A stretch of DNA of 64,000 bases from an uncultured Actinomycetota bacterium (GTDB taxonomy: Bacteria; Actinomycetota; UBA4738; HRBIN12), in the NCBI GenBank assembly GCA_963788925.1, contig CAWBIH010000002.1, positions 218,568-282,567 on the forward strand, given 5' to 3'. Position numbers and translations under genes: made by a program. Shown piece after piece: positions 8,087 through 27,641 of this stretch. Under the pieces are notes generated by a model. The model was not told where the DNA came from. It made no database searches and saw nothing but the letters and a program-made list of their open reading frames with translations. The first letter of the stretch is position 1; the number at the start of each line of letters is the position of its first letter.

Positions 8087-8152
8087 TCGCGGCGATTCTC
8101 CCAACCTGTGACCTCCTCCTGCAACTTTCGCCGGCGCCCGTGACGGCAGCCG

Positions 8153-8224
8153 AGCCGGAGATGGGATTCGAACCCATGACCTACCACTTACGAGGCGGTT
8201 GCTCTGCCACTGAGCTACTCCGGC
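8153..8224 (-). tRNA. tRNA-Thr (anticodon CGU)
   Basis: Reverse complement is GCCGGAGTAGCTCAGTGGCAGAGCAACCGCCTCGTAAGTGGTAGGTCATGGGTTCGAATCCCATCTCCGGCT. Cloverleaf folds with a 7-bp acceptor stem, D and T arms (GGGTTCGAATCCC), and anticodon loop CTCGTAA, giving anticodon CGT. Confidence 0.9.
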
Positions 8225-8339
8225 GAACGAGGCAGGATACCAACGGCCCAGGTCGCGGCCGGTATGAGTGCTGGCATCACCCACGGTTCGCCGGCCCTCA
8301 CCATTGGCTGCGAACCACCCGAGGCGCCATGATGCGCGG

Positions 8340-10448: not shown

Positions 10449-10870
10449 GCGGAGCCGGCGCTGTCGACGCGCTCCTGGACCTCGCGCAGTCGCTCGACGA
10501 CGCCGTGGAGGATCGCGACCGCGACGCTCGGGTTCTGGATCAGGAACGGGTCGAAGTAGATCGTCTCGATCACCAAGGCCTCCACCGGCTCCGCCGCCGT
10601 GACGCTCGCGGACCGGCGCGTGTGTCCGAGCAACGCCATCTCGCCGAAGAAGTCTCCGGGCGCGAGGTCGTGGACGGCGCCGCCGACCTCGACCTGCGCG
10701 GCACCCGACAGGATCACGAAGAGGCCGCCGCGGTCGGAGTCGCGCTCGACGAGCGCGTCGCCGGCCGCGTAGCTGCGTCGCTGACCGACCTTGGCGACAC
10801 GCGAGAGATCGTCGTCCGTCAGCTCCTCGAAGAAGCGGACCTTGCGGAGGGCCTCGACATCGCTCGTCAT
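10445..10870 (-). CDS. stand-alone cyclic-nucleotide-binding (CAP-effector) domain protein
   Basis: 141 aa with a canonical phosphate-binding cassette (FGEMALL ... RRSASVTA). Confidence 0.8.
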   Translation of the reverse strand: MTSDVEALRKVRFFEELTDDDLSRVAKVGQRRSYAAGDALVERDSDRGGLFVILSGAAQVEVGGAVHDLAPGDFFGEMALLGHTRRSASVTAAEPVEALVIETIYFDPFLIQNPSVAVAILHGVVERLREVQERVDSAGSA

Positions 10871-10885
10871 CTCATCTCCTCCCGA

Positions 10886-13232
10886 TCATCCTAATGAGAC
10901 GAGCTCCACGGCCTCGTCGCGGAGCTTCGCGGGGTCGGCCAGGCCGCCCGACCGGATGATGCCCATCGCATCCTGGACGTCGGCGGGACGGTCCACGGAG
11001 ACCACGGCCTGGACCCGGCCGTCGAGCATGTAGAAAGCGGCGAAGCTCCGCGACTCCAGGCTCCCGCGGATCACCAGGTCGTCCCACTCCCGGTGATACC
11101 CGGCGTACTGGATGGTGTGCTCGTACTGATCCGACCAGAACCAGTGGATCTCCTCGTACGGCGTGTCGCGGCCGAGCATGTTCAGGGCCGCGGCACGCCC
11201 CTGACGCCGCGCGTTGTCCCAGTGCTCGACCCGGATCCGGCGCCCGTAGATCGGGTGGTAGTGGTTGGCGACGTCGCCGGCGGCGAAGACGCCGTCGACG
11301 CTTGCCCGGCAGTGCTCGTCCACCACGACGCCGTCGTCCACCTCGATCCCCGATCCATCGAGGAAGCCGACCACCGGCTCCACACCGAGGCCGAGCACGG
11401 CGAAGTCGCACGACAGGCTGAGACCGCTCGCCGATCTCACCGTCCGGACGGCGGCCGTCCCCTTCGAAGCTCGCCACCTGATCATCGAACGTCATCTCGA
11501 CACCGTGATCACGATGGATGCCTTCGATCACGCGACCCACGTCCTCGCCCAGTACCCGGTCGAGGGGCGCCTTCCCGCCTGCGACGACGTGAACCTCGAG
11601 GCCTCGCTGCCGGAGCGATGCCGTCACCTCGGAGCCGATGAACCCCATCCCCGCCATCACGACCCGACGGCCCGGCAGCATCTCCGCGCGGATCGCGGCC
11701 GCATCGCCGAGCGTCCGCAGGTCGAGGACCCCTGCGAGGTCGATCCCCGGGATCGGGAAGCGCCGGTTGCGCGCACCGGTCGCGATCAGGAGCTTGTCGA
11801 AGGACACGGGATCGCCGCCCGCGACCGTGATCGTCTTCCCGGCGCCGTCCACGGCGACGACCGTCGTTCCGAACCGTGTCTCGATGCGGTTGTCGGCGTA
11901 GAACGCTTCGGGCCGGACCATGGCCTCCTGGATCGTCGACTCACCTCGGAGGAACGACTTCGAGAGCGGCGGCCGCTCGTAGGGGAACGTTGGCTCCGAC
12001 CCGATCAGCACGACCTCGCCGTCGAAGCCTTCCTCACGAAGGGTCGCGGCAGCCGTGGCTCCGGTGAGGCTCGCGCCCACGACGACATATCGTTCCTTCT
12101 TCGCGCCAGGATGGGTGTCCCGGCCGGCAGACGGCGCGGGAGATGGCGAGGCGGACACCTCCGCGCCTTCCGTCGCCGCTCGTTCTTCAGCCGGAGCCGT
12201 GCCTCCCACGCGTTCCAGTGGCTCGGCCGCGGGGCCGCGGACCACCGATCCGTCGAAGCCGAACCTCGAACCGTGGCACGGACAGTCCCAGGTCTTGGCG
12301 GAGTCGTTCCAGTCGACCGTGCAGCCCATGTGCGTGCAACGAGACGAGAGCTCGTACGTCTGGCCTCCCTCGTCGCGATAGACGGCGAGCTGCTGACCGT
12401 CGACGCTCACCAATCCCCCGTGGCCGGCCACGAGATCGTCCACCGAACGGTCCACGGTCTTCACGATCAAGACGTCCGAGGGCACCTCGTGGGCGACCTT
12501 GTTGGGCACGGATCCCAGGAACCGTCGAACGCCCGACATCCCCTTGTTCCCGACCACCACGAGCTGCACATCTTCCGACTCGGCCAGCTCGCAGATCCGC
12601 TGGGCGGGGTCTCCTTCGACGGTCCGCTTCTCGACCGTGACGTCCTCGGGTCGGGTCGAGGCGACCTCCTCGAGCTTGATGGCGCCGACCAGTGGATCGC
12701 CCACATGGACGAGCGTGACCGTGCCGGCGTAGACGGAGGCGAGCGTGTAGGCCTTGCGGACGGCTTCGGTCGCCGTCCCCGAGCCGTCCGTCCCCGCCAG
12801 GATCCGCATGTACGGCGGGGCGGGATCTCGCGGACCGGCGCGGCCGGTGGTGTCCACGATCAGGAGGTCGCAGGGCGCGTCATGCGCGATCCAGTCGGGC
12901 ACGCTGCCGAGTCGGAACCGGGTCGCCTGCCCCATGCCGCGGTTGCCGACGACGATCAGGTCGGCTCCGTGCTTGATCGCGGCCGCGAGGATGGATTCCC
13001 CGGGTGTCCCCTCGATCAATTCCGCGATCGCATCGACCTTCTTCGCACGCGCCGCCTCCGCCGCCTCGTAGAGGGCGGTCTGGAGCGGCTGCCGCGAGAT
13101 GCCGAAGGCGTCGAGCGCCCCGACGAGCACGAGGGTGCCGTGGAGACGTTTCGCGAGCTTCTGCGCCACCTCGACGGCGACCGACGCGGTCGGTGAGCCG
13201 TCGGTGCCGACGACGATCTTCCGGTAGGACAT
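10886..13232 (-). CDS. fusion of tandem universal stress protein domains, a Rieske [2Fe-2S] domain and an FAD/NAD(P)-dependent ferredoxin reductase, with a 1-nt frame break at the CCCC run 11459-11462
   Basis: One continuous 786-aa ORF holds two USP domains (VVGNRGMG..., VVGNKGMSG...), a Rieske CTHMGC...CPCHGS motif, and a reductase Rossmann start (VVVGASLTGATAA). The reductase C-terminus (GIEVDDGVVVDEHCRASVDGVFAAGDVANH) continues in ORF 10886..11485. Confidence 0.8.
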
Positions 13233-14030
13233 CTAGGCCGCCGCCTCCAGAGTGCCGTTCATCTGCGGATGGACGTCACATCGGAAGTAGTACGAGCCGG
13301 GATCGAGCGCCGGCACGTCATAGGTCACGGTCTCGGGGCCGTCGACGAGGTCGCCGACGAACAGCGACTCCGCCGCGGAGTCGTCCGTGTAGATCGCCAC
13401 GTTGTGCGGCACGCCATCGTCTTCGTTATCGAAGACCAGCCCGAACGCCTCGCCGGCCGGCGCGGTCAGGCGATCGCTCGAGAAGCTCTGGTCGTCGAAC
13501 GCGCACACCGTGACGGCCGCGTCCGGCGTAGGGGAACACTCGGCTTCCGTCCCACCGAACCCGAGCGTCGGCTTGAAGATCATCAGCCAGAGGATCGCGA
13601 GTAGGCCGACGAAGCCGACCGCCGCGATCGTGTACGGCCGCTTCGAATGGAGGATCTCCTCGAACTGCTCCTGGGAGACCGCCTCGGTTCCCCCCACCTT
13701 CGCAGCGGAGATCGTCCGCAGCCGCTTGGCCCATGTGGTTCCCATGGCGTACATCGCGGCGATGACCGCGACGAGGATCACGATCGCCGCCCAGATCCAC
13801 GCCTGCCCCCAGAAGTGACCCGTGAACCCGGCCAGGATCCCTCCCAGCAAGAGGAGGCCGATCGAGTTCCACATGAACCCGACCGAGGACGCCGAGAGCT
13901 CGAGCAGATGGCTCACCCGCGCCGGGTCGCGCTCCCTCGGGAGCCGCAGCGTCACGTACGCCGAAACGCCGTGCGCCATCAGGAAGCCGAACACGCCGGC
14001 GATGTGAAGGAACACCCACCATCGATGCAC
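13233..14030 (-). CDS. membrane-anchored cupredoxin (type-1 blue copper) protein
   Basis: Four N-terminal TM helices, then a plastocyanin/azurin-like domain. Candidate copper ligands are His (VPHNVAIY) and the Cys-x2-His-x2-Met in YYFRCDVHPQMNG. Its stop abuts the start of the USP-Rieske gene. Confidence 0.7.
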   Translation of the reverse strand: MHRWWVFLHIAGVFGFLMAHGVSAYVTLRLPRERDPARVSHLLELSASSVGFMWNSIGLLLLGGILAGFTGHFWGQAWIWAAIVILVAVIAAMYAMGTTWAKRLRTISAAKVGGTEAVSQEQFEEILHSKRPYTIAAVGFVGLLAILWLMIFKPTLGFGGTEAECSPTPDAAVTVCAFDDQSFSSDRLTAPAGEAFGLVFDNEDDGVPHNVAIYTDDSAAESLFVGDLVDGPETVTYDVPALDPGSYYFRCDVHPQMNGTLEAAA

Positions 14031-14033
14031 GGC

Positions 14034-14204
14034 CTACTCCTCCCCCACGGTGACGGCGGCGGCCGTCGACTCCGGCCTCGCCTGTTCCTTCTTCTTGATC
14101 TGGCGCATCACGAGACGCTCCAGCACGAACACGAGCACGGCCATGAAGACGCCGACGAGCCACCGCTCGAAGCGACGGAAAGGGGACCGTCCCTGAGACG
14201 TCAC
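14034..14204 (-). CDS. small single-TM protein (about 57 aa)
   Basis: GTG start at 14204 overlaps the upstream stop as GTGA. Has a hydrophobic helix (LVGVFMAVLVFVL) and a basic tail. A real CDS is uncertain. Confidence 0.4.
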   Translation of the reverse strand: MTSQGRSPFRRFERWLVGVFMAVLVFVLERLVMRQIKKKEQARPESTAAAVTVGEE

Positions 14205-14966
14205 CCGGTGGATGCCTCCCGCGCCGCTTCGACACGGGCGAGGAGCCAGAATCCGATGCCGGCGGCGACCGCCAGCCACGACCACCCGTTCGGCGGCGCG
14301 CCCGCGTAGCCGGCGAACACGAGGCCGGCCACACCGAAGAGGACCGCCGCGATCGACGCCGCCGTGCCCGCGAACTCCCAACCGACGCCGCGCAGAGACG
14401 TCGCGATCCCGGCACCTGCGATCGAGAGCGCGGCCACGGCGACACCCGACCAGTGGTGCATCTGGACGTGCGGGTCCGCGGCCGGTCCGTGCTGGAGCTC
14501 CGCCTCGGTCACCGCGTAGATCCAGGCCGGCATCGTCGCGATCACGGCATAGGTCATCAGCGCGATGCTCGGGTGTCCGGGGAGCCGGAGGAGCGACCGG
14601 GGATCTGGATGCAGCAGCAGCAAGACGATCACCCCGATCGGACCGGAGACGTAGAAGCCGGTCAGGAAGTCACCACCCATCAACCCGCCGATCGTCCACG
14701 CGATCGCCTGGGCGACGAGGACGTGGAAGGCAGACGTCCAGCCCGGTCGCACTGACCAGGGCGATCGAGAACACGCCGATCAGTCCCCCGCCGGCGAGAC
14801 CCGCGAGGTAGTGGAAACGATGGATCGTGTCGGAGAGATCGCCGGACACGATCGACAACAGGACGAGGAACAGCGAGTACCCGATCGTGAGCACTCCGAA
14901 GATCCAGCCGACGAGGCGGAAGGCCAGCCGCCCCCGAGATACGTCCGGTGTGTAGGTGGATCCCAT
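14201..14966 (-). CDS. polytopic integral membrane protein of unknown function, with a frame break near 14730-14760
   Basis: ORFs 14670..14966 and 14201..14752 are both strongly hydrophobic and consecutive, giving about 8 predicted TM segments. I do not recognise the family. Confidence 0.5.
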
Positions 14967-14990
14967 CTCCTCGATCGTTCCCTTCCGAGA

Positions 14991-17067
14991 TCAGGCAGCC
15001 GTGACCGGCACCCGGCCCGCTACCGTGGTGCCGCGGCCGGGTGCCGACCGGATCTCGAGAGAGCCTCCCACGGCTGCGAGCCGGTCGGCCATGCCCTGGA
15101 GGCCGGAGCCGGTGGCCACGGCGTCCGGGTCGAAGCCGCGGCCCTCGTCGACGACCTCGAACGAAAGGCTGCCGTTCGATTGCGACAGATGGATCACGGT
15201 GCGATCCGCGTCGGCGTACTTGGCAACGTTCTGGAGCGCCTCGAGGGCGCAGAAGTAGACGGTGGCCTCCACGTCGACGGAGTAACGGCCCACCGCGTCC
15301 GCCTCCACGCTCACGGGGACGGCAGCCTTCCTTGACTGCGCCTCGAGGGCTGCGACCAAACCACGATCGGCGAGCAGCGGAGGATAGATGCCACGGGCGA
15401 GATCCCTCAGGTCTTCCAGCGCCGTCTGGGTCTCCGTCTCGATCTGGATGAGCATCTCCGCGGTCTTCGCCGGATCGCGCTCCGTCAGTTGCCGGGCGAG
15501 CCGAGCCTTGACGGCGAGCGCGACGAGCTGCTGCTGGGCGCCGTCATGGATGTTGCGCTCCAGGCGACGCCGCTCCTCGTCCTGCGCAGCGACCAGACGC
15601 TGGCGTGAAGCCCGGAGGTCCTCCACGAGACGGACGTTGCGAAGCACGAGGCCCGCCTGGGCGGCGAGGTCGCGGACCAACTTCTCCTTCGTGGGATTCA
15701 TCGGGTCGGCAGCCGGCATGCGAACCGAAAGCGCCCCGAGGAGCTCCCCGCGATCGCGGACCTCGACGGCAGTTTCGCCCGGGACGCTCCACACCTCCCC
15801 GTCGGTGGTGGGGACAGCACCGATGACGGTCGCGTCTTCAGGCCAGGCGGCCGCCTGGCGAAGCTCGCGTCCAGCCCGTAACCACACGCGGGCCACCTCC
15901 GCGCCGGCGCCCTCGCCGAGTACCTGGGCCATCCGAGGCAGCACGTCCTCGGTCGCGTAGGACGTCCCCACGCGCTCGGAGAACTCCGTCAGCACCTCGT
16001 ACGGCGTGGCACGCCGGCCGTAGACGAACCGATCGACCACCTTGCGGGCGATGCGCATGACGGGTCGGAAGGCGATCCCGAGCAGGAGCGCGATGACGAA
16101 CAGGGATCCGGGACTTTGGCGGTCGGCGGCCGCAACGCCGAACAACGCGACCGCGCCCCCGTACACCGCGAGTGCCAACACCACGAGTGCTCCGGCGACG
16201 AGCGCCTTCTTCACCACGACATCCAGGTCCCACAGGCGGTACTGCAAGATCGCGATCCCGACGGTCAAAGGGATTCCGAGGAAGGCCAGGCCCGAGATGA
16301 ACTCGCCCACACCTCCCTCCGAGATGCCGAGGCCCTCGAGGATCGCGCTGATCACGAAGTAGGTGGCGAGCACGACGACCGCGAACGCGAACCATTTGAG
16401 CTGCTGTCGCTCGACGCCGCTCGACCGGCGGAATCGGATGACCATCGACGTGGCCGCCGCCGCGAAGAGGCCGAGGAGCACCGGCCAGAGCACGTTCCCG
16501 ATGGATTCGATCTCCAGCCCGGGGATATGCAGTGGGTTCGCGACCGTGATCGTTGGACCGACGTCACCGAGCTCGAACGTGGCTGTCCCGAACCCGATCG
16601 TGACGAACGCGAGGATCGAGATGCCGACACCCGCCCAGGCGAGCCACCGCCAGCGAGGTGACGGCAGCTCTCCGTTGGGGAAGACCAGGGGGAGGAGGAT
16701 CAACAGCGGGAAGAGCCCGAGGGCCCAGAGCGCGTTGCCCGGCCAGGCGAGCCACGACGCGAGAGCGGGCTCGCCTTGTGTGGCCGCGTAGATCGACGCC
16801 TCGCCGGTCGTGAAGGCCGCGCCCACCGTGATCGCGACCCAGAGGAGCAGCCATCCGATCCGATTGTCCGGTGCCCGGCTCAAGCTCAGGGCGCCGACGA
16901 CGCCCATCCCCATGAACGCGGTGAAGTTCGTGGAATCGCCGAGGAGCGAGTCATCCGTTCAGTGACACGAGGACCAGGCCGATCGCCGCGAAGCCAGCCG
17001 TGACCCAGAGCACGATCCAGGGCCATCGAGACGGCCGCGACGTCGGTGTCGCCGTAGTCGCGGCCAT
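14991..17067 (-). CDS. membrane sensor histidine kinase (multi-TM sensor - GAF-like - HisKA_3 - HATPase_c), paralogue 1, with a frame break near 16950-16980
   Basis: HisKA_3 motif (ERNIHDGAQQQLVAL) and HATPase G-boxes. The N-terminus (PSRWPWIVLWVTAGFAAIGLVLV) matches the paralogues at 19710 and 21839 but lies in another frame. The start ATG at 17067 shares one base with the upstream stop (TGATG). Confidence 0.8.
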
Positions 17068-18353
17068 CACGCGCCGCCCCCCAGGATCCGGAAGACTTCA
17101 ACAGGCTCTTCGCGGCCTTTGACGAGACGGGGACCGATCGACTCGGCGGCGACCGAGGGCGCCGCTGAGACGGTCGAGGCCGCGGCGACGACCTCGCCGC
17201 CCTTGGCCTCGGATTGGAGACGCTGCGCGACGTTGACGGCGTCGCCGATCACCGTGTACTCGAGTCGGCCGCCGCCGCCGATCGCGCCGGCCATGACGAT
17301 CCCGGTGTTCAGCCCGATCCCGACGTGAAGTCCGTCGACCGCCTCGGTCCCCCACCCCATCGAGTTGAGCTCGCGCTGGCGATCCTGCATGGCGAGCGCG
17401 CACTGCAGCGCCCGCTCGGCATGATCCGAAGACGGCTCCGGAGCACCGAAGACGGCCATCACGGCGTCGCCCTGGAACTTGTCGATCGTGCCGCCGTGCT
17501 CGGAGATCACCTCGGCCATCGCGCCGAGGTGACGTCCGACGATCTCGCCGATCTCCCGAGCCGTGAGTCGCTCCGCGATCGTGGAGAAGCCACGGATGTC
17601 GCTGAACAGGACGGTCACCTCGAGCTCGCGCTGGCTCGCGGCGTCACCGCCGCGAGCCAGCGCGTCCACGAACTGCGACGGCACGTAGGACTTGAGCGAC
17701 GTCGCCGTGGCCGACTGCTCGACGACCGCCGCGTGCAGCTTCTTGAACTCCCCCAGCAGGCCGGTGCCGGCTCCGCCGTCACCGGCCATCCGCCGGAAGA
17801 GCATCGTCACGCGCCCGTCCACGGCCTCTTGGGTCGTGCCCAGGGCGGCCGCCATCGCCTCGTAGCCGAGACCCTGAGCCATCATGTCGAGCACGATGCG
17901 GTCCTCCTCCTGGGACTCGGCCCGCCCCGACAGACGTTCGGCGATCGTGGGATCGACGACGCTCCCGCCGCTCTGCACTTCCCGGATCGCACGGGCGAGC
18001 TCGTCGCCCTGCGCGATCCGGTCCTTCAGCAGGTACGCGAGCCCGCTGTGTCCCTTGCCGAGCAGCGCGATCGCGTACTCCTCGTCGTCGTGCGCCGAAA
18101 GCACCACCACGCCCGTATCCGGGTGACGCTCGCGGATCGCGTGGGCGCAGTCGATCCCCTCGAGCTGGAAGGAGGGCGGCATCTTGATGTCGGTCACGAC
18201 GACGTCGGGGCTGTGCTCCGCCGCCGTCGCCAGGAGTGTCGGTGCATCCTCCGCGACCCCGACGACCTCGATGTCGTCATAGGAGTTCAGGAGCGCCCGG
18301 ACGCCCTCACGCACGAGGACGTTGTCCTCCCCGAGCACCACTCTGATCGTCAC
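17067..18353 (-). CDS. response-regulator receiver - LuxR-like HTH - class III adenylate/guanylate cyclase fusion
   Basis: GTG start at 18353. The REC domain has the phosphoacceptor context VVVTDIKMP. The HTH-like segment is DRIVLDMMAQGLGYEAMAAALGTTQEAV. The C-terminal cyclase homology domain includes VLFSDIRGFS, KFQGDAVMAVFGAP and IGLNTG. Confidence 0.75.
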   Translation of the reverse strand: MTIRVVLGEDNVLVREGVRALLNSYDDIEVVGVAEDAPTLLATAAEHSPDVVVTDIKMPPSFQLEGIDCAHAIRERHPDTGVVVLSAHDDEEYAIALLGKGHSGLAYLLKDRIAQGDELARAIREVQSGGSVVDPTIAERLSGRAESQEEDRIVLDMMAQGLGYEAMAAALGTTQEAVDGRVTMLFRRMAGDGGAGTGLLGEFKKLHAAVVEQSATATSLKSYVPSQFVDALARGGDAASQRELEVTVLFSDIRGFSTIAERLTAREIGEIVGRHLGAMAEVISEHGGTIDKFQGDAVMAVFGAPEPSSDHAERALQCALAMQDRQRELNSMGWGTEAVDGLHVGIGLNTGIVMAGAIGGGGRLEYTVIGDAVNVAQRLQSEAKGGEVVAAASTVSAAPSVAAESIGPRLVKGREEPVEVFRILGGGA

Positions 18354-18391
18354 GCAACCGCCCCCAACTTCCTCGCGTGTACCATCCGCGC

Positions 18392-19058
18392 ATGCCGCTG
18401 CGGGTGGTCTTCGCCGAGGATAACTACCTCGTGCGGGAAGGAACCGCCGCCCTCCTCGCGACCGCCGACGAGGTCGAGATCGTGGGCACGGCGGCAAGCC
18501 TCGATGAGCTGCTCTCCGCGGTCGACGAGCACGGACCCGACGCCGTGCTCACCGATATCCGGATGCCGCCCAGCGGGACCGACGAGGGGATCCGGGGTGC
18601 CAAGCAGATCCGCGCGTCGCACCCGGACATCGGGGTCGTCGTGCTGTCGCAGTTCGCGGAGGAGGAATACGCGTACGACCTGCTGAAGGACGGAGCGGCC
18701 GGCCTCGGCTACCTGTTGAAGGAGCGCGTGGCCGACGTCGAGGAGCTGGTGCGGGCGCTGACGGAGGTGGCCCGCGGTGGCAGCGTCCTCGATCCCGAAG
18801 ATCGTCGAGGCGCTCGTCGCCGCGAAGGAGCACCTCGCGCATTCGCCGCTCGCCAGGCTGACCGACCGGGAGCGCGAGGTGCTCGGCCACATGGCCCAGG
18901 GGCAGAACAACGCCGCCATCGCGAAGTCGCTCTTCCTCACCGAGCGCGCGGTCGAGAAGCACATCAACTCGCTGTTCCACAAGCTGGGACTGACCGAGGA
19001 GCCCGACGTGCACCGCCGGGTGATGGCGGTGCTCGCCTTCCTCCGCGATCAGTCGTAG
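18392..19058 (+). CDS. NarL/LuxR-family response regulator, with a frame break near 18790-18800 at a CCC run
   Basis: REC domain (MPLRVVFAEDNYLVREG...VLTDIRMP...), then a LuxR HTH (LTDREREVLGHMAQGQNNAAIAKSLFLTERAVEKHINSLFHKL) in the next frame. Transcribed divergently from the cyclase gene. Confidence 0.8.
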
Positions 19059-19099
19059 CGCGGCCACTCGTCGCGCCCGCAACCGGCCACCGTGCATCG

Positions 19100-19507
19100 T
19101 CACTGCGCTTTCCGCGTATCGACGATGTAGACGCTGCAGGGGGCGTGCCGGAGCACGAGGTTGGGAACGCTTTCGCGGACGTGCCACCGGGATCCCTGGG
19201 TCCCCCGGTTCCCGAGCACGATCGTCTCGGCCATGACCTCCGCCGCGACATCGCAGATCCGAGACGCCGCGTCCCCGTCCTCGATCCGAGTCTTGACCGA
19301 TGTTCCCGGGAAGCGCGCGGCCAGTCGCTGCAGGTGCGCTCGCGGATCTGCCGCCCGGTCCGGGTCGACGACCGCCCGGATGTCGCCCTCCGGCTTCACA
19401 TACAGCACCAGCAGCTCGGCGCCGCGCTCGCGCGCGAGTCGCGCCGCGTCCTCGACCGCGAGATCCGCGGCCGCCGAGGTGTCTGTTCCCACCAGGATCG
19501 TTGTCAT
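19100..19507 (-). CDS. universal stress protein (UspA family)
   Basis: 135 aa with USP fold motifs (ILVGTDTS..., LGNRGTQGSRWHVRESVPNLVLRHAPCSVYIV). Confidence 0.8.
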   Translation of the reverse strand: MTTILVGTDTSAAADLAVEDAARLARERGAELLVLYVKPEGDIRAVVDPDRAADPRAHLQRLAARFPGTSVKTRIEDGDAASRICDVAAEVMAETIVLGNRGTQGSRWHVRESVPNLVLRHAPCSVYIVDTRKAQ

Positions 19508-19709
19508 CGTGGGCCTCCTTCGTTCGTCACCGCGACGCTACGCCGCCGACCCGAGCCCGACGACGGCGCCCGCATGCCGAGTTCGGCAGGGTGCCAGCAC
19601 CCCGGTCCGAGGGGTGTTCGAGGACGCGGAACCGCAGGTCGGCCCCATTGGCCCGCGGAGCGCCGGGTGGGACGATTCGGTTCGATATGGACGGACCGAA
19701 GGCGATCAC

Positions 19710-21842
19710 GTGAGCTTGCCGGCGACGCAGGCCCGGCTCGATCAGCCCAGATCGCGCTGGCCGTGGCTGCTCTGCGCGCTCGCGGTGCTCCTGGTGCTCG
19801 CGGCGATCACGCTCTACGTCATCGGCGGACCCGGCGACCAGGCTTCGACGGACACCCTCGTGTTCCTGCCTGTGGTCCTCCTCACCATCCTGGGCTACTC
19901 GACCGTCGGGGCGATCCTCGCCTCGAGGAACACGAGGAACCCGATGGGCTGGATCATGTTGACGGTCGGTCTTGCCTTCGCCCTCGCACAGGCGACGGAG
20001 ACCTACGCCAAGTACACCCTGGAGATCGATCCCGGCGTCCTCCCGTTCGGTGCGGTCGCCGCCTGGTTCGGGACCTGGGACTACGCCGTCGCGTTCTGCG
20101 CGCTTCTGGTTCTCGCCCAGCTGTATCCCTCGGGCCGTGTCCTCAGCCCCCGCTGGCGGAAAGTGCCATGGATCGTGGTGGCGGCCGCATCCGTCGCATC
20201 GGTGGGAACGGCGTTGGGTCCGGGAACGCTCGAGGTCGAGACCGGGTTCGCGGTCGATAACCCCTTCGGGCTCGAGGCGATCCGTCCGATCGTCGAGATC
20301 ACCGGTGGGATCGGATGGATCGTTCTGCTCGCCTCGGTGCCGGTCTCGATCGCGTCGCTCGTGCTGCGCTTCCGCCGCTCGGAGGGCGAATCGAGGCAAC
20401 AGATCCGATGGCTCGCCTTCATCGCCGTCGCGGTGGTCGCATCCCTCCTGCTTGCCGCCGCGGCCGTGATCGTCTTCGGAGAGCGATTCGACCGATCCAT
20501 CGGTCCAGAGGTGTTCTTCGGCGTGATCTTCTCGCTCATCGGCGTGGGCGTGCCGGCGGCGATGGGTGTCGCGGTCCTGAAGTACCGCCTCTACGACCTC
20601 GACCTCGTGATCAAGAAGACGATCGTGTTCGCGATCCTGGTCCTGCTGCTGCTCGCCCTCGTGGGCGTCGGCGCCCTGCTGCTCGGCGGCACGCTGGTGC
20701 CGTCGCTCTCCGACCGGCCCCCGCTGCTCGTCGTGTTCGGAGTCGTGTTCGGGCTGCTCGTCATCCCGGCGTACCGGCTGGCGCGCAGGATCGCGGATCG
20801 CGTGGTCTACGGCGGTCGAGCGTCTCCCTACGAAGTCCTTTCCGAGTTCTCCGAACGGGCGAGCGAGACGTACTCGACCGAGGACGTGCTGCCGCGGATG
20901 GCGCAGCTGATCGGCCAGGCCACGGGCGCGGACGCAGCGAGGGTGTGGCTCAAGGTCGGCTCCGAGCTGCGCCCGGCGGCCGCCTGGCCGGCCGAGGCGA
21001 TCGGGACACGATCGCTGCCTTCTCGTGACGGCGAGCTGCCCGACTTCGAGGACACGGCCGTCGAGATCCGCCACCAAGGTGAGCTGCTCGGTGCCCTCAC
21101 GCTCGAGATGCGCGCGAGCGATCCGATGAATCCGTCGAAAGAGCGGATCGTCCGTGACCTTGCCTCGCAGACCGGCCTCGTGCTTCGGAACGTGCGCCTC
21201 ATCGAAGAGCTCCGAGAGTCCCGGCGCAGGATCGTCACGGCGCAGGACGAGCGCGCCAGGAAGCTCGAACGCAACATCCACGACGGCGCACAACAGCAGC
21301 TGGTCGCGCTGGCCGTGAAGGTCGGGCTCGTCGAACGCCTCGTACAGGCCGACGCGCAGAAGGCCGTGGCGATGCTCGGCGAGGTGAAGAGCGAAGCCAA
21401 CGACGCGCTCGAGAACCTCCGAGATCTCGCGCGAGGGATCTACCCGCCGCTGCTCGCCGACCAGGGCCTCGCCGCGGCGCTGGGCGCGCAGGCTCGGAAG
21501 GTGTCGATCCCGGTCGCCGTCGAGCCGGACGGGATCGGCCGCTATCCGGAAGAGACGGAGGCGGCGGTGTATTTCTCCTGCCTCGAAGCCCTGCAGAACA
21601 TCACGAAGTACGCGGGCGCGTCGAGGGTGACCGTGCGGCTCGCTCAGGCCGACGGCACCCTTACGTTCGAGGTGAGCGACGACGGCCGAGGCTTCGACCC
21701 GGGCGTCGTCGGACACGGCACGGGTCTCCAGGGGATCGCCGACCGCCTCGCCTCGCTCGGCGGCGAGCTCGAGGTCAGGTCGGCGATCGGCGACGGCACG
21801 ACCGTTGCCGGACGCCTCCCGGTCCGTGGGGAAAGCCCATGA
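19710..21842 (+). CDS. membrane sensor histidine kinase (multi-TM - GAF-like - HisKA_3 - HATPase_c), paralogue 2
   Basis: GTG start at 19710 preceded by a GAAGG ribosome-binding site. The track ORF from 19161 overlaps the antisense usp gene and is too long. The GAF/HisKA_3/ATPase region is highly similar to the kinases at 14991 and 21839. Confidence 0.85.
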   Translation: MSLPATQARLDQPRSRWPWLLCALAVLLVLAAITLYVIGGPGDQASTDTLVFLPVVLLTILGYSTVGAILASRNTRNPMGWIMLTVGLAFALAQATETYAKYTLEIDPGVLPFGAVAAWFGTWDYAVAFCALLVLAQLYPSGRVLSPRWRKVPWIVVAAASVASVGTALGPGTLEVETGFAVDNPFGLEAIRPIVEITGGIGWIVLLASVPVSIASLVLRFRRSEGESRQQIRWLAFIAVAVVASLLLAAAAVIVFGERFDRSIGPEVFFGVIFSLIGVGVPAAMGVAVLKYRLYDLDLVIKKTIVFAILVLLLLALVGVGALLLGGTLVPSLSDRPPLLVVFGVVFGLLVIPAYRLARRIADRVVYGGRASPYEVLSEFSERASETYSTEDVLPRMAQLIGQATGADAARVWLKVGSELRPAAAWPAEAIGTRSLPSRDGELPDFEDTAVEIRHQGELLGALTLEMRASDPMNPSKERIVRDLASQTGLVLRNVRLIEELRESRRRIVTAQDERARKLERNIHDGAQQQLVALAVKVGLVERLVQADAQKAVAMLGEVKSEANDALENLRDLARGIYPPLLADQGLAAALGAQARKVSIPVAVEPDGIGRYPEETEAAVYFSCLEALQNITKYAGASRVTVRLAQADGTLTFEVSDDGRGFDPGVVGHGTGLQGIADRLASLGGELEVRSAIGDGTTVAGRLPVRGESP

Positions 21843-23920
21843 ATCAGCGGCGTCTCGCCTGGACGATCTGGGGCGTCTCGGTCGCGTTCCTCATCGCGTG
21901 GTTGATCGTGGACGCGTCGAGCACGCCGGTCGACATCGGCGAGTACGCCTTCGTCGTGTTCGCGGTGCTCCTGTACTCGACCGTCGGAGTACTGATCACG
22001 TCGCGACAGCCGGCGAACCGCGTCGGCCTGTTGTTCGCCTGGGTCGGGCTCTCCGCGTCCATCAGTGGCCTGGCGGGCTCGTACGCCGTCATGGCCCAGC
22101 AGCGGGACCTGCCTTTCCTCGCCGCGTCGGCATGGGTCGGGCGGGTCGGGTTCGTCGCGATGTTCGGTCCGCTCGCGTTCCTCTTCCTCATCTTCCCCAC
22201 CGGCCGGCCACTGTCCCGCCGCTGGGGCTGGCTCATGAAGGCGATGATGGTCGGCTTCGCCATCACGCTGATCGGGTTCGCGTTCACTCCCGGATCCCTC
22301 ACCGCCGGGTTCGCCGAACTGCCGCGCCCGGTCGCGAACCCGATCGGGTTCCCGATCTCCTGGAAGCCGGCGATGGAGGCGGTCACGACAGCAGCCGGTT
22401 TCCTCGTGTTCGTCGGTGCGCTGCTGTCCGTCGTCTGCCTGATCCAGCGCTACCGTCGCGCCGCGCAGCTCGAGCGGCAGCAGATCAGATGGCTGGCGTT
22501 CCTCGGTGTGTTCCTCGGGGTCATCTTGTTGATCTCCATGGGGCTGTTCTCCACCGGCATCGTCAGCGACGACAGCGTCGCCTCGGGCGTCGCCTTCTTC
22601 ACCTTCATCTTCGGCGTGTTCCTCGGCATCCCGGCGGTGTGCGGCCTCGCGATCCTGCGGCACGGCCTGTGGGACCTCGACGTCGTGGTCCGGAAGACCG
22701 TGCAGTACGGACTCCTCGTCGCCGGGTTCGTGCTTGTCCTGGGGGTCGTCGTCTTCCTGGCGCCGCTCATGTTCATCGGCGTGGGAGGCAGCGTCGATGT
22801 GCCGACGCTCGTGGTCGCAGCCCTCCTCGCGGTCGGGTTCACGTTGGTGCGGTCCCGGGCGCGCCGTTGGGCGAATCGGATCGTCTACGGCAAGCGATCG
22901 ACCCCGTACGAGGTCCTCTCCGAGTTCGCCGAACGCGTAGGAGGTACGTACTCAACGGAGGACGTCCTCCCGCGGATGGCCCAGCTCCTCGGTGAAGCGA
23001 CCGGCGCGCGGGAGGCTCGGGTCTGGCTGCGCATCGGCAACGAGATGCGGGCGGATGCATCCTGGCCTCTCGATGCCGCGCAGACCCGGAACGTGCCGGC
23101 CCGGGCAGACGAGCTCCCAGACTTCGGTGACGACGTTGCATTCGAAGTGAGGCACCAGGGCGAGCTGCTCGGTGCGCTCACCGTTTCCGTGGCGGCCAAC
23201 GACCCGATGAACCCGACGAAGGAGAAGCTCGCGCGCGATATGGCCGCACAGGCGGGCCTGGTGCTCAGGAACGTCCGCCTGATCGAGGACCTTCGGGAAT
23301 CGCGCCGCCGGATCGTCAGCGCGCAGGACGAGCGAGCCCGCGCGCTGGAGCGGAACATCCACGACGGCGCGCAGCAACAGCTCGTGGCCCTCTCGGTGAA
23401 GCTCCGCCTCGCGACCGGGTTCGTCGAACGCGACCCGGCGAAGGCCAGGGCCATGTTGGAGGAGCTGCAGGGCCAGACGACGGAGACGCTGGAGGACCTC
23501 CGCGATCTCGCTCGAGGGATCTACCCGCCGCTGCTCGCCGACAAGGGTCTTCCAGCCGCGTTGGAAGCCCAGGCGAGGAAGTCGCCCGTTCCCGTGACCG
23601 TGCAACCCGACGGTGTGGGCCGCTACCGCCAAGATGTCGAGTCGGCCGTCTACTTCTGTTGTCTCGAGGCGCTCAACAATGTCGCGAAGTACGCCGACGC
23701 GTCCTCCGTCGAGATCCGCCTGCAGCAGAGCGACGGCGAGCTTCGTTTCCAGGTGGCGGACGACGGGCGCGGATTCGACACCGCGGCCATGAGTGACGGC
23801 ACCGGTCTCCAGGGGATGGCCGACCGCCTCGACGCGATCGGAGGGATGTTCGAGATCGTGAGCGTCCCCGGGGCCGGCACCACCGTGACGGGCCGGCTTG
23901 CGGTGCTGGAGGCCGGTTAG
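21839..23920 (+). CDS. membrane sensor histidine kinase, paralogue 3
   Basis: 693 aa with the same architecture. Its ATG overlaps the stop of the previous kinase as ATGA, indicating tandem duplication with translational coupling. Confidence 0.85.
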   Translation: MNQRRLAWTIWGVSVAFLIAWLIVDASSTPVDIGEYAFVVFAVLLYSTVGVLITSRQPANRVGLLFAWVGLSASISGLAGSYAVMAQQRDLPFLAASAWVGRVGFVAMFGPLAFLFLIFPTGRPLSRRWGWLMKAMMVGFAITLIGFAFTPGSLTAGFAELPRPVANPIGFPISWKPAMEAVTTAAGFLVFVGALLSVVCLIQRYRRAAQLERQQIRWLAFLGVFLGVILLISMGLFSTGIVSDDSVASGVAFFTFIFGVFLGIPAVCGLAILRHGLWDLDVVVRKTVQYGLLVAGFVLVLGVVVFLAPLMFIGVGGSVDVPTLVVAALLAVGFTLVRSRARRWANRIVYGKRSTPYEVLSEFAERVGGTYSTEDVLPRMAQLLGEATGAREARVWLRIGNEMRADASWPLDAAQTRNVPARADELPDFGDDVAFEVRHQGELLGALTVSVAANDPMNPTKEKLARDMAAQAGLVLRNVRLIEDLRESRRRIVSAQDERARALERNIHDGAQQQLVALSVKLRLATGFVERDPAKARAMLEELQGQTTETLEDLRDLARGIYPPLLADKGLPAALEAQARKSPVPVTVQPDGVGRYRQDVESAVYFCCLEALNNVAKYADASSVEIRLQQSDGELRFQVADDGRGFDTAAMSDGTGLQGMADRLDAIGGMFEIVSVPGAGTTVTGRLAVLEAG

Positions 23921-23927
23921 ACCTGCC

Positions 23928-24305
23928 TCAGGCGGCGCCGCGCGCGGCGGCCCACGCCTCTTCCAGCCGGTCGGGGCCGAAGGCCGACTTGGGGATGTAG
24001 GCGGCCGCGCCGCACTCCGCGGCGCGCGGCGCGTACTCCTCTTCTTCATACGTCGACAGGAGCAACACGACGGAGCTGTTCGCGTTGTCGGCGAGGATCT
24101 GGCGAGTGGCGTCGAGCCCGTTGATCCCCGGCAGGTTCACGTCCATCAGGACGAGATCCGGCGTGAGATCGGACGCCATCGTCACGGAATCCTCACCGGT
24201 CTCGGCTTCGCCCACGACTTCGAAGCCCTCCGTGGCATCGACCACCATCCTGGCCGCCATCCGGAAGGGCTCCTGATCGTCCACGATGAGAACCCGCACC
24301 GTCAT
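23928..24305 (-). CDS. single-domain response regulator (REC only)
   Basis: Start at MTVRVLIVDDQ. Has the conserved Asp context (LVLMDVNLP) and no output domain. Convergent with kinase 3. Confidence 0.75.
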   Translation of the reverse strand: MTVRVLIVDDQEPFRMAARMVVDATEGFEVVGEAETGEDSVTMASDLTPDLVLMDVNLPGINGLDATRQILADNANSSVVLLLSTYEEEEYAPRAAECGAAAYIPKSAFGPDRLEEAWAAARGAA

Positions 24306-24388
24306 CCGTTCCTCCACACGCAAGCGTCCCACCGACGGCTGCATGCGCCAGGGGTGCCAGCACCACAGTTGTCGTCCCCCGAGCGACC

Positions 24389-25544: not shown

Positions 25545-27641
25545 TCAGTCGGAGGGCAAGGCCTCGGGTTCGGCCTCGTCATCGTTCGAGCCCGTCGCAC
25601 CCGACTCCGCGGCGCCGGCGGCCGGCTTGAGCGATCCGGCGCCGCCGCCTTCCTCACGCTCACCGATCGCTTTGTCGAGCGCGACCCGCACGGCGTCGAA
25701 CACCTCGGCCACGGGCTTGTCCGCGTCGATGACGACGATCCGCTCCGGGTGTTCTTCGGCGATCTTCAGGTACGCGTCGGCCACCTTGGCGTGGAAGTCC
25801 TGCCCCTCGAGCTCCATCCGGTCGGGCGCCTCGGTCGACCGGAGCAAGCCTCGCTCGGGTTCCAGATGCAGCAGGATCACGAGGTCGGGGAACAGCCCTT
25901 GCGTACCCCACACGTTCAACGTGAGGATGTCCTGCTCGCCCAAGCCTCGCCCCCACCCCTGGTACGCGAGCGAGGAGTCCACGTATCGGTCACAGATCAC
26001 GACCTTCCCCTCCGCGAGGGCGGGCCGGATCACCGAATGCACCGTCTGCGCGCGCGAGGCCGCGAACAGCAAGGCTTCGGTCCGCGAGTCGAGCTTCCCC
26101 GTCTCGGGGTCCAGCAGCAGCTCACGCACCCGTTCGCCGACCGCGGTCCCCCCCGGCTCGCGCGTCACCAGCACGTCGTACCCCTCGGAGCGCATGAACT
26201 CCTCCGCCATCCGCACCTGGGTGCCCTTGCCGGAGCCCTCGACGCCCTCGAAGGCGATGAAGAACCCGGTGGCCGGTGGCCGCTTCAGCTTCGGCACGAG
26301 GGTGAGGGGTTGGGGGCGAGAGAGCCGGTATCGCTTGAGGAGCCGCCACGTGTTGAGACCGGCGATGGCCACCGCGATGCCCGCGCTCGCGAGAGCCAGT
26401 CGGATCCCGAGCTCGGAGCCGGCGCCCAACGTCCCATAGACACCCGCCAGCGTAGGGAACGTGGCGAGGGAGAGGAACAACCCCATCCGCGAAAGCACCG
26501 TGAGCGAGGCGAACGTGCGACCTCGGAACTCGTCCCGGACGTTCTCCTGCAGCAAGGTGTAGCCGGTGACCCAGGCCAGCCCGCAGAACGCACCGAGCCA
26601 GACGGTCACGACGGCGGCGAAGGCGAACGTCGGCATCGCCGAGAGCACGAACAGGGTGGCGGCGGCCACGACGATCGACCACGGGAAGATCGAGACGCGA
26701 TCGATGAGGCGGGAGACCTGGTTGGCGCTCGCCATCCCCAGGCCGATCCCGACGCCGAACGCCGTGACCATGAACCCCCAGCCCCCCTTGTCGGCGCCGA
26801 GGGTGTCGACGACGAAGATCGGCGCGAGCGCCAACACGGCGCCGACGGCGGAGAAGGCGACCACGATCCCGGCCGTCATCGCCGAGGCCATGGAGTCCTC
26901 GCGGAGGAACCGGATCCCGTCGCGCACGTCGCGCCAGATGCGCGAGAAGTCCAGACGCCCGGTGAGCATCGCCGGCGAGGGAGGGATCGGAACGCGGCTG
27001 ATCATGGCGGCCGAGAACACGAACGTCGCGGCGTCGAGGAACAGCGGCACGGCCTGGTCGCGTCCTCGGAGGATCGGGATCGCGTGGCTGAGCAGCGTGT
27101 TCAGTCCGACGAGCACGGTGAACACGATCCCGCCGAGCGGAAGGGTGCCGTAGGTGGAAGCGAGCGCGATCGAGTTCGCGTTCGCGAGCTGGCGGCGGGG
27201 AACCAAGTTGGGGAGCGACGCGTCGCGGGCGGGCCCCCAGACGAGAGAGAAGCTCTCGATCGCGAACGACAGCGCGTAGATCGCCCAGAGTTGCCCGATG
27301 AACACCATCGCGACGTACATCGTGCCGCGGGCGAGGTCGGCCATGACCATGATGCGTTTCCGGTCCAGCCGGTCGACGAGGGTCCCGGCGATCGGCCCGA
27401 ACAAGACGGCGGGGAGCGTGCGCGCGAGCATCAGGCCCGCGACGGAGAACGCGGCTCCGCCGGTGCCGCCGGCGAGATCCGCAACGAGCGAGGTCACGGC
27501 GAGGAATCCCACCCAGTCCCCGAGCGAGGACACGGACATCGCTGCGAGGAGCCGCGCGAACGGCGGATGCGTGAGCAGATCGCCGAGCGTCGCCGACCGG
27601 GTGCCGCGAAGCGCGGCAACCTCGTCGGCGACGCTCGCCAC
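25545..27641 (-). CDS. tmk: thymidylate kinase fused to an N-terminal 12-TM MFS-like membrane domain
   Basis: 698 aa. About 430 aa of polytopic membrane domain are followed by a Tmk P-loop (FIAFEGVEGSGKGTQ), DRY motif and lid. From memory, the same fusion occurs next to topA in Streptomyces. Confidence 0.8.
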   Translation of the reverse strand: MASVADEVAALRGTRSATLGDLLTHPPFARLLAAMSVSSLGDWVGFLAVTSLVADLAGGTGGAAFSVAGLMLARTLPAVLFGPIAGTLVDRLDRKRIMVMADLARGTMYVAMVFIGQLWAIYALSFAIESFSLVWGPARDASLPNLVPRRQLANANSIALASTYGTLPLGGIVFTVLVGLNTLLSHAIPILRGRDQAVPLFLDAATFVFSAAMISRVPIPPSPAMLTGRLDFSRIWRDVRDGIRFLREDSMASAMTAGIVVAFSAVGAVLALAPIFVVDTLGADKGGWGFMVTAFGVGIGLGMASANQVSRLIDRVSIFPWSIVVAAATLFVLSAMPTFAFAAVVTVWLGAFCGLAWVTGYTLLQENVRDEFRGRTFASLTVLSRMGLFLSLATFPTLAGVYGTLGAGSELGIRLALASAGIAVAIAGLNTWRLLKRYRLSRPQPLTLVPKLKRPPATGFFIAFEGVEGSGKGTQVRMAEEFMRSEGYDVLVTREPGGTAVGERVRELLLDPETGKLDSRTEALLFAASRAQTVHSVIRPALAEGKVVICDRYVDSSLAYQGWGRGLGEQDILTLNVWGTQGLFPDLVILLHLEPERGLLRSTEAPDRMELEGQDFHAKVADAYLKIAEEHPERIVVIDADKPVAEVFDAVRVALDKAIGEREEGGGAGSLKPAAGAAESGATGSNDDEAEPEALPSD

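Follow-up and report, generated by a model that had tools for sequence, protein, structure and literature searches.

The 64,000-nt stretch of DNA analysed here (the window; contig CAWBIH010000002.1, G+C content 69%) comes from an uncultured Actinomycetota bacterium. It carries a signalling island in which three paralogous membrane-bound sensor kinases (K1, K2 and K3) lie among three receiver proteins and several genes for universal stress proteins (USP). The receivers are a NarL/DosR-like response regulator (RR), a receiver (REC) domain fused to a class III adenylyl cyclase (REC-cyclase) and a single-domain receiver (REC-only). Our reading, to which we give a probability of roughly 0.55, is that many paralogous sensors feed this one set of three receivers, with a transcriptional and a cyclic AMP (cAMP) output, and that the island is conserved in soil Actinomycetota. 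It builds on direct observations: the gene content, domain architecture and conservation of the island, its variable number of kinases, the invariance of their DHp helices and a conserved palindromic box.

A conserved island with a variable number of kinases

The locus was sought in one genome per species, which yielded 78 loci, all from metagenome-assembled genomes (MAGs) of uncultured Actinomycetota. These were compared with the window and with three loci obtained by contig look-ups (L001, L002 and L003). The common gene order, with arrowheads for orientation, is [kinase x0-3] < REC-cyclase < RR > USP < [kinase x1-6] > REC-only < holB. Across loci, RR is 74–99% identical, REC-only 70–100%, REC-cyclase 63–98% and the kinases 35–58%. 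The number of kinases per locus varies from one to six, with array sizes from (0,1) to (1,4) and (0,5). In L001, two further kinases, K4 (737 aa) and the shorter K5 (495 aa), are located between K3 and REC-only (12090..16379 of that locus). Because L001 has these two and other loci have up to six kinases, the arrays gain and lose members.

The fixed core, seen in about 80 loci, consists of USP-ABC1, p56, p255, K1, REC-cyclase with its degenerate helix–turn–helix (HTH), RR, USP, the kinase array, REC-only and holB. In the window, the genes of the island are as follows ('repaired' lengths disregard single-base insertions described below):

8340..10448, plus strand: fusion of USP and an ABC1 atypical kinase (USP-ABC1; Pfam Usp and ABC1), which adjoins p56/p255/K1 in convergent orientation in many distant loci
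10445..10870, minus strand: stand-alone cyclic-nucleotide-binding protein of 141 aa (Pfam cNMP_binding, E = 7e-16; NCBIfam CRP-like cNMP domain matches)
10886..13232, minus strand: USP-USP-Rieske-FAD reductase fusion (Pfam Usp twice, Rieske, Pyr_redox_2 and Reductase_C), split by a 1-nt insertion
13233..14030, minus strand: membrane-anchored cupredoxin-like protein (Pfam Cupredoxin_1 and a weak, sub-threshold match to the DUF2269 membrane domain)
14037..14204, minus strand: p56, a small conserved protein (tblastn to a 56-aa gene of L001, 82% identity)
14204..14966, minus strand: p255, a conserved membrane protein 3' of K1, its match split over two frames; no Pfam family matched
14991..17070, minus strand: kinase K1 (ten transmembrane helices, GAF-like, HisKA_3 and HATPase_c); repaired protein 691 aa
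17067..18353, minus strand: REC-cyclase, a fusion of REC, a degenerate LuxR-type HTH and a class III adenylyl cyclase (Pfam Response_reg and Guanylate_cyc)
18392..19058, plus strand: RR, a NarL/DosR-like response regulator (REC and GerE by Pfam); repaired protein 221 aa
19100..19507, minus strand: USP, a single-domain universal stress protein (Pfam Usp, E = 7e-26), kept in nearly all related loci
19710..21842, plus strand: kinase K2, intact open reading frame (ORF) with HisKA_3 and HATPase_c
21839..23920, plus strand: kinase K3, intact ORF with HisKA_3 and HATPase_c
23928..24305, minus strand: REC-only, a single-domain receiver convergent with K3 (Pfam Response_reg, E = 6e-23)

Much of this layout had been proposed in a first-pass annotation made from the sequence alone. 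The tandem K2/K3 pair with its ATGA overlap is present, both ORFs being intact, and so are REC-only, the cyclase fusion and, in the 64-kb window, a single NarL-type DNA-binding regulator. The proposed enrichment in USP amounts to four USP domains over three genes between 8.3 and 19.5 kb. The coordinates given for K2 and K3 hold; K1 (given as 14991..17067) and RR (667 nt) are both frameshifted as assembled. The start of K1 overlaps the stop of REC-cyclase (GTGATG).

The left arm of distant loci reads USP-ABC1 > < p56 < p255 < K1 < REC-cyclase. In related loci, p56 adjoins p255 in 31 cases and p255 adjoins K1 in 29. The USP-ABC1 fusion is an ancestral member of the island, and in the clade of the window three genes (for the cupredoxin-like protein, the USP-USP-Rieske-reductase and the cyclic-nucleotide-binding protein) are inserted between it and p56. 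The first two, present in the window clade only, are predicted to be co-transcribed with K1 and hint at a redox or electron-transfer output. Taken as a whole, the locus is a lineage-wide conserved hub in uncultured soil Actinomycetota and not a local oddity.

Kinase paralogues and their sensor module

The three kinases had been annotated as paralogues with about 60–70% identity in the GAF-like, HisKA_3 and ATPase regions. Pairwise alignments bear out the paralogy, K1 (repaired), K2 and K3 being 49–51% identical over their whole length. The annotated range fits the cytoplasmic part, from the linker behind the transmembrane (TM) helices to the C terminus (62–66%), but neither the whole length nor the membrane part (32–34%). 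All three contain HisKA_3 (Pfam E = 1e-11 to 1e-14) and HATPase_c with the conserved His-box ERNIHDG; their sequences place them among the HisKA_3-type sensor histidine kinases, the class that partners NarL-type regulators. In L001, each has a separate orthologue (81% identity for K1, 88% for K2 and 83% for K3), while the paralogues stay near 50%. As all three kinases have separate orthologues in other species, the duplications are old, not recent. The K1 orthogroup (23 members) can be traced to loci whose RR is only about 80% identical, and the K2 orthogroup always occupies the first position after USP. Grouping at roughly 55% identity divides the 211 intact kinases found across the loci into about 40 sets.

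Hydropathy analysis and two AlphaFold2 models of K3 (full-length, pLDDT 77; TM-only, pLDDT 78 and pTM 0.72) agree in predicting ten TM helices with the N and C termini inside. The sensors are thus predicted to be membrane-embedded as first annotated, with ten helices instead of eight. The outside loop between TM5 and TM6 is conserved and has invariant G157, N167 and P168. The sequence motifs pointed out earlier, RQQIRWLAF (K2 and K3; RQQLKWFAF in K1) and LKYRLYDLDLVIKK (K2), were found again; they belong to the cytoplasmic loops TM6/7 (RxRR..ERQQIRW) and TM8/9 (LWDLDVVxKK). Behind the TM part, at residues about 373–458, there is indeed an alpha/beta module at the place of the annotated GAF-like domain, but it is short and its Pfam GAF scores are marginal. 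A long signalling helix joins it to the DHp domain. The annotated lack of a haem-ligand context is confirmed, because the GAF-like region (residues 346–458) contains no invariant His or Cys.

Searches with 13 TM modules against Pfam at E <= 10 gave no consistent family, with a weak DUF2975 match in four of them. MASE1 (PF05231) was unmatched in these modules even at that threshold, which sets them apart from the 8-TM MASE1/UhpB type, and HisKA_7TM (PF16927) was unmatched in the window kinases and in 13 relatives; one distant relative of 1131 aa gave a sub-threshold PF16927 match (E = 7.6e-5). NCBIfam returned only core-domain matches for the kinases (MctS, UhpB, LiaS and NarX), far below the cut-offs. 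With the TM-only model, a Foldseek search of PDB found nothing significant (best E = 0.016, TM-score < 0.4, generic G-protein-coupled receptor/rhodopsin bundles), and the whole kinase model matched DHp-CA domains only. A profile of the TM module, on the other hand, matched 22,962 protein clusters defined at 50% identity, and for 12,822 of these the match had E <= 1e-10. Kinases of two sizes are among the matches: some have about 700 aa, and others, in which the TM module is present twice in tandem, have about 1070 aa (P0122, P0143 and P0206). There is also a stand-alone form of about 410 aa without a kinase, which ends after a conserved 'DRRFYRRKYDA..TLE.F' stub (P0141, P0179, P0186, P0208 and P0233). 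The 10-TM sensor module is very abundant in metagenomes and has neither a family assignment nor a solved structure.

Receivers and kinase–receiver wiring

As assembled, RR shows the Pfam domains Response_reg and GerE in two different frames. The repaired protein can be aligned over its full length with DevR, VraR and NarL, and its sequence assigns it to the NarL/FixJ family of response regulators. The best relative in PDB is DevR/DosR (3c3w, E = 3e-26, roughly one-third identity), with VraR and NarL close behind. REC-cyclase is 50% identical to RR through REC and the HTH remnant, and both have 'LVREG..ALL' in helix alpha-1; REC-cyclase is a paralogue of RR. The acceptor residues are kept in all three receivers, REC-only having the acceptor Asp, the Ser/Thr and the Lys.

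The mean pairwise identity of the 211 kinases is 31–34% in the TM segments, 51% in the GAF-like module and 68% both in the signalling helix and in DHp helix 1. Within the DHp domain, ERNIHDGAQQQLVAL (helix 1) and LRDLARGIYPPLLAD (helix 2) are at least 90% invariant. Paralogous kinases that need insulation from each other normally diverge at docking positions (Capra and Laub). Because the docking helices are invariant, the receiver trio constant and the kinase count variable, the kinases most likely converge on a shared receiver set; that they share regulators is what we infer from the DHp invariance.

The island could also consist of three ordinary systems side by side, with insulated pairs in which K1 signals to REC-cyclase, the first right-hand kinase or kinases to RR, and the kinase next to REC-only to REC-only. 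Kinases and receivers are equal in number in the window, three of each, and K1 and REC-cyclase are operon partners with a stop/start overlap; K1 orthologues lie directly downstream of REC-cyclase in 19 of 23 cases, and a separate kinase orthogroup adjoins REC-only in 16 of 18. Helix alpha-1 of REC-only differs from that of RR and REC-cyclase, as separate partners would have it. Such pairs are hard to reconcile with one to six kinases per locus while the three receivers are constant, or with a His-box and a DHp helix 2 that are at least 90% invariant in all 211 kinases, just where insulated paralogues normally diverge. Moreover, K3 of the window is not a member of the orthogroup usually found beside REC-only. 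We therefore regard strictly separate pairs as rather unlikely and retain convergence on shared receivers as the working model.

A palindromic box upstream of USP genes and REC-only

A search for LuxR-box motifs upstream of the USP genes, of the kind that the first-pass annotation had envisaged, found a conserved palindrome before two USP genes and before the REC-only gene. The sites in the window are as follows (PWM, position weight matrix score; strand not applicable):

19586..19605: operator-like palindrome GGGTGC-CA-GCACCC in the divergent USP/K2 intergenic region; PWM 21.3 versus a shuffle maximum of 17.6
24349..24368: operator-like 20-bp palindrome centred about 53 nt upstream of the REC-only start; PWM 25.6
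8263..8282: operator-like variant with a GAGTGCTGGCATCACC core (one mismatch), about 67 nt upstream of the USP-ABC1 start; PWM 15.5

Upstream of REC-only, the family consensus is the 20-bp sequence CAGTGGTGC-CA-GCACCACTG. The shared core is GGTGC-CA-GCACC, and the conserved box can be written as (CAGT)GGTGC-CA-GCACC(ACTG). The exact core GTGCNNGCAC occurs at two sites only in the 64 kb, at the USP and REC-only promoters. In the window alone, the motif count is not significant (three matches versus 1.09 expected; 12% of shuffles reach three), and the score of the variant box lies within the shuffle range.

The case for the box therefore comes from positional conservation across loci. When the USP/K2 intergenic regions of 14 diverged loci were aligned, the block GGTGCCAGCAC was invariant in 13, the remaining locus (L077) having one mismatch in the 11-mer core. 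A palindrome at the same position is found in more than 20 related loci at USP/K2 and in about 20 at REC-only. Over dozens of loci, its location is fixed: it precedes the USP start by about 85 nt and that of REC-only by about 50 nt. For USP-ABC1, exact GTGCNNGCAC is present at –60 to –97 of the orthologues in 29 of 72 metagenome loci, most of which sit in other genomic contexts. This is an enrichment of about 100-fold, as the upstream windows, 12 kb in total, contain 29 of the 38 matches in 410 kb. A palindrome of 20 bp is suitable for a dimer of the LuxR/NarL type, and RR of the island would be the protein that binds it.

The USP/K2 intergenic region contains further conserved blocks at 19610..19680, namely GCATGC, GGGTGTTC, GAACCGCAGGTC and CCCTTGG-N17-GGTGGGAcgAT. 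The last of these looks like a stress-sigma promoter (SigB/SigF-type GGGxxxAT) for K2–K3, and a similar CATTGG-N20-CCATGAT is located upstream of USP-ABC1. Between 14 and 25 kb, a scan for sigma-70 promoters gave no matches and a terminator scan gave counts no higher than in shuffles; in the conserved region between USP and K2, Rfam detected neither a riboswitch nor a small RNA.

A proposed cAMP branch

The cyclase domain of REC-cyclase matches Pfam Guanylate_cyc with E = 1.5e-25. Across 51 REC-cyclase orthologues, conservation is at least 90% for the motifs FSDIRGF, DKFQGDAVMA and IGDAVNVAQRL and for the catalytic D/K/D/D-N-R residues. We take these residues to be two Asp that bind metal, the Lys/Asp pair that specifies the substrate, as is typical of adenylyl cyclases, and the transition-state Asn/Arg. 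This signature places the domain among the class III adenylyl cyclases, and REC-cyclase is predicted to make cAMP. Between its REC and cyclase parts it retains an HTH that is degenerate and yet conserved, and its gene is arranged head-to-head with that of its DNA-binding paralogue RR. The minus-strand operon which starts with REC-cyclase ends with the 141-aa cyclic-nucleotide-binding protein. Homologues of the latter are present in eight related loci, six of them distant (L031, L040, L059, L062, L069 and L079); most distant loci with such a homologue also carry REC-only. Mycobacterial USPs that bind cAMP have been documented (PMC11107214).

Single-base insertions in four island genes

Three related contigs were aligned with 17 kb of the window, and Illumina-type metagenome contigs with another 7 kb. 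Exactly four 1-nt insertions in these approximately 24 kb are restricted to the window, all of them +1:

near 11450: in the USP-USP-Rieske-reductase gene, absent from all relatives
near 14754: in p255, window only
near 16952: in K1; the ORF restarts at 16913, and TM1 is in another frame
near 18793: in RR; REC and GerE are in different frames

It is because of one insertion in each that the lengths annotated for K1 (2077 nt) and RR (667 nt) are not multiples of three. In the reductase fusion, positions 2–214 of the Pyr_redox_2 profile share the frame of the two Usp domains and Rieske; positions 216–291, like Reductase_C, fall in the frame of 10886..11491.

In sibling contigs produced by the same MAG project (MFD...bin, with contig_N names), private insertions number 12–16 per contig, and genes as basic as topA and tmk are split there. 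Past its frameshift, RR in the repaired frame differs from its relatives in 9–28 synonymous versus 0–2 non-synonymous codons, which points to purifying selection, and the repaired protein is 95–99% identical to proteins of close relatives. Beyond the insertions themselves, the four split genes are free of stop codons and deletions, and non-synonymous change in them is not raised. Because the sibling contigs are riddled with insertions and deletions, RR has a synonymous excess and stops and deletions are absent, the four insertions are most likely assembly errors, probably of long-read origin.

If they were genuine, K1, RR, p255 and the Rieske-reductase would be frameshifted pseudogenes and K2 and K3 would be left without a DNA-binding partner. 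In keeping with such decay, all four insertions are private to the window assembly and fall within 11.4–18.8 kb, with none in the other approximately 16 kb compared, but their clustering in 7.3 of 24 kb is not significant by our own calculation (p about 0.09). Decay also fits poorly with changes that are uniformly +1, with the codon pattern of RR and with the same kind of error throughout the project. We consider it improbable. Programmed frameshifting is ruled out: the four contexts differ, there is no slippery motif, and the insertions are absent from all relatives. Annotation calls for caution in this assembly, as single-base insertions, probably sequencing errors, split four genes of the island.

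Neighbouring genes

Beyond REC-only follow holB, a fusion of an MFS transporter domain to thymidylate kinase (25545..27641, minus strand, 698 aa) and then topA; the fusion is kept in relatives between holB and topA. A tRNA-Thr (CGT) gene at 8152..8224 (minus strand), directly upstream of the USP-ABC1 promoter region, is the sole Rfam/ARAGORN match in the 64 kb. Synteny with the closest relative ends past a VTT-domain gene (window from about 31058 onward versus 18500..21341 of L002). At 18500..21341, L002 encodes a large cyclase-AAA_16-TPR protein; the window has no such gene at that position.

Comparison with known systems

The first-pass annotation had likened the island to a DosR-type stress regulon with USP genes. 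This resemblance is strengthened by the relationship of RR to DevR/DosR and by the palindrome upstream of two USP genes and REC-only. In the DosS/DosT–DosR system of Mycobacterium tuberculosis, more than one HisKA_3 kinase likewise goes with one NarL-family regulator, and a palindromic operator of up to 20 bp is likewise found upstream of USP genes in a USP-rich neighbourhood. All of this would be expected if the island were an orthologue of the mycobacterial DosS/DosT–DosR system for sensing hypoxia, NO and CO. The sensors, however, are of a different build. DosS and DosT are soluble and have tandem GAF domains with haem, whereas the island kinases have ten TM helices and one short, truncated GAF-like module without invariant His or Cys, and they resemble DevS/DosT in the ATPase domain only. 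The DosR box has the consensus TTSGGGACTWWAGTCCCSAA; the box of the island has the same length and symmetry but a different sequence, and the residues of the recognition helix also differ from those of DosR. In addition, the island has the REC-cyclase and REC-only receivers and a kinase number of one to six. Orthology is thus largely refuted by architecture, and we hold it to be very improbable: the island is analogous to DosR and not a member of DosRST.

AbrC1/AbrC2/AbrC3 of Streptomyces coelicolor is an atypical system of two kinases and one regulator (PMC4428217). Like the island, it is actinobacterial and has two different kinases encoded beside one response regulator; unlike the island, it has only two kinases, separate promoters and neither a cyclase nor a single-domain receiver, and it controls antibiotic production. 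Known cases of several kinases acting in one pathway are GacS/RetS, KinA–E, which feed Spo0F, and LuxN/LuxQ/CqsS of Vibrio, which feed LuxU. In these networks, as in our reading of the island, several sensors integrate different signals into one output pathway, but their sensor architectures are unrelated and their genes usually scattered, whereas the island kinases are one family in tandem around the receivers. The island also differs in its invariant docking helices and in its proposed dual output, transcriptional and by cAMP. Multikinase networks are a recognized class (PMC8498467).

The DHp-CA core of the island kinases is homologous to that of DesK, NarX/NarQ and LiaS/VraS; in PDB, DesK matches it best both in sequence and in fold. 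The GAF-like region and core of NarX match in NCBIfam, far below the cut-offs. Unlike these types, the island kinases lack a HAMP domain, and their sensor is neither periplasmic nor of the 5-TM DesK type. Class III adenylyl cyclases regulated by receiver domains are known, for example cyanobacterial CyaC. REC-cyclase shares with the CyaC type a REC domain N-terminal to the class III cyclase and has intact catalytic residues; it differs in its origin from a NarL-type regulator, the degenerate HTH that it has kept and its head-to-head arrangement with its paralogue. The island stays within established two-component logic, being a multi-sensor variant and no novel type of system. It is set apart by tandem paralogous sensors that vary in copy number and are built on an unclassified 10-TM module, by the invariance of the docking surface and by a NarL-derived REC-cyclase as second output.

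Proposed mechanism and significance

In the mechanism that we propose, several membrane HisKA_3 kinases with divergent 10-TM sensors would act through the GAF-like module and the signalling helix on a near-invariant DHp domain and converge on three receivers. The first, RR, would bind the palindrome upstream of USP (divergent from K2–K3), REC-only and USP-ABC1. In the second, the RR paralogue fused to a class III cyclase, dimerization driven by phosphorylation would turn on cAMP synthesis, and the cAMP might be read by the stand-alone cyclic-nucleotide-binding protein and perhaps by USPs. The third, the single-domain REC, may serve as a phosphate sink or adaptor. The output would be a USP-rich stress or redox programme, functionally analogous to the DosR regulon, with an input that is membrane-borne and not haem-based.

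Several points weigh against this mechanism. Because helix alpha-1 of REC-only differs from that of the other receivers, its partner is less clear, and position H+11 of the DHp domain varies among the kinases. The fixed neighbours (K1 by REC-cyclase, the 'last' group by REC-only) could reflect a preferred one-to-one pairing. All kinase–receiver assignments, like the binding of RR to the box, the activation of the cyclase by phosphorylation and the identity of the signals, are inferred. The view covers 64 kb of the genome, so that regulators encoded elsewhere are possible, and the box may belong to another regulator. Finally, K1 and RR are interrupted as assembled; should the insertions be genuine, this strain has a broken hub.

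A bolder interpretation, which we offer tentatively and consider doubtful as it stands, is that the island is an undescribed dormancy or stress switch. In this case, expandable arrays of sensors on a new, Pfam-less 10-TM fold (at least 12,800 clusters, with stand-alone and tandem forms) would drive a three-receiver hub with simultaneous transcriptional (USP operator) and cAMP output.

The island occurs in a large group of never-cultured soil bacteria. If the model holds, it would be a compact natural case of signal integration, in which many divergent membrane sensors are translated into both a gene-expression and a second-messenger output. It would then also yield a defined operator sequence that predicts the regulon, and an adenylyl cyclase that is derived from a NarL-type regulator and regulated by phosphorylation.

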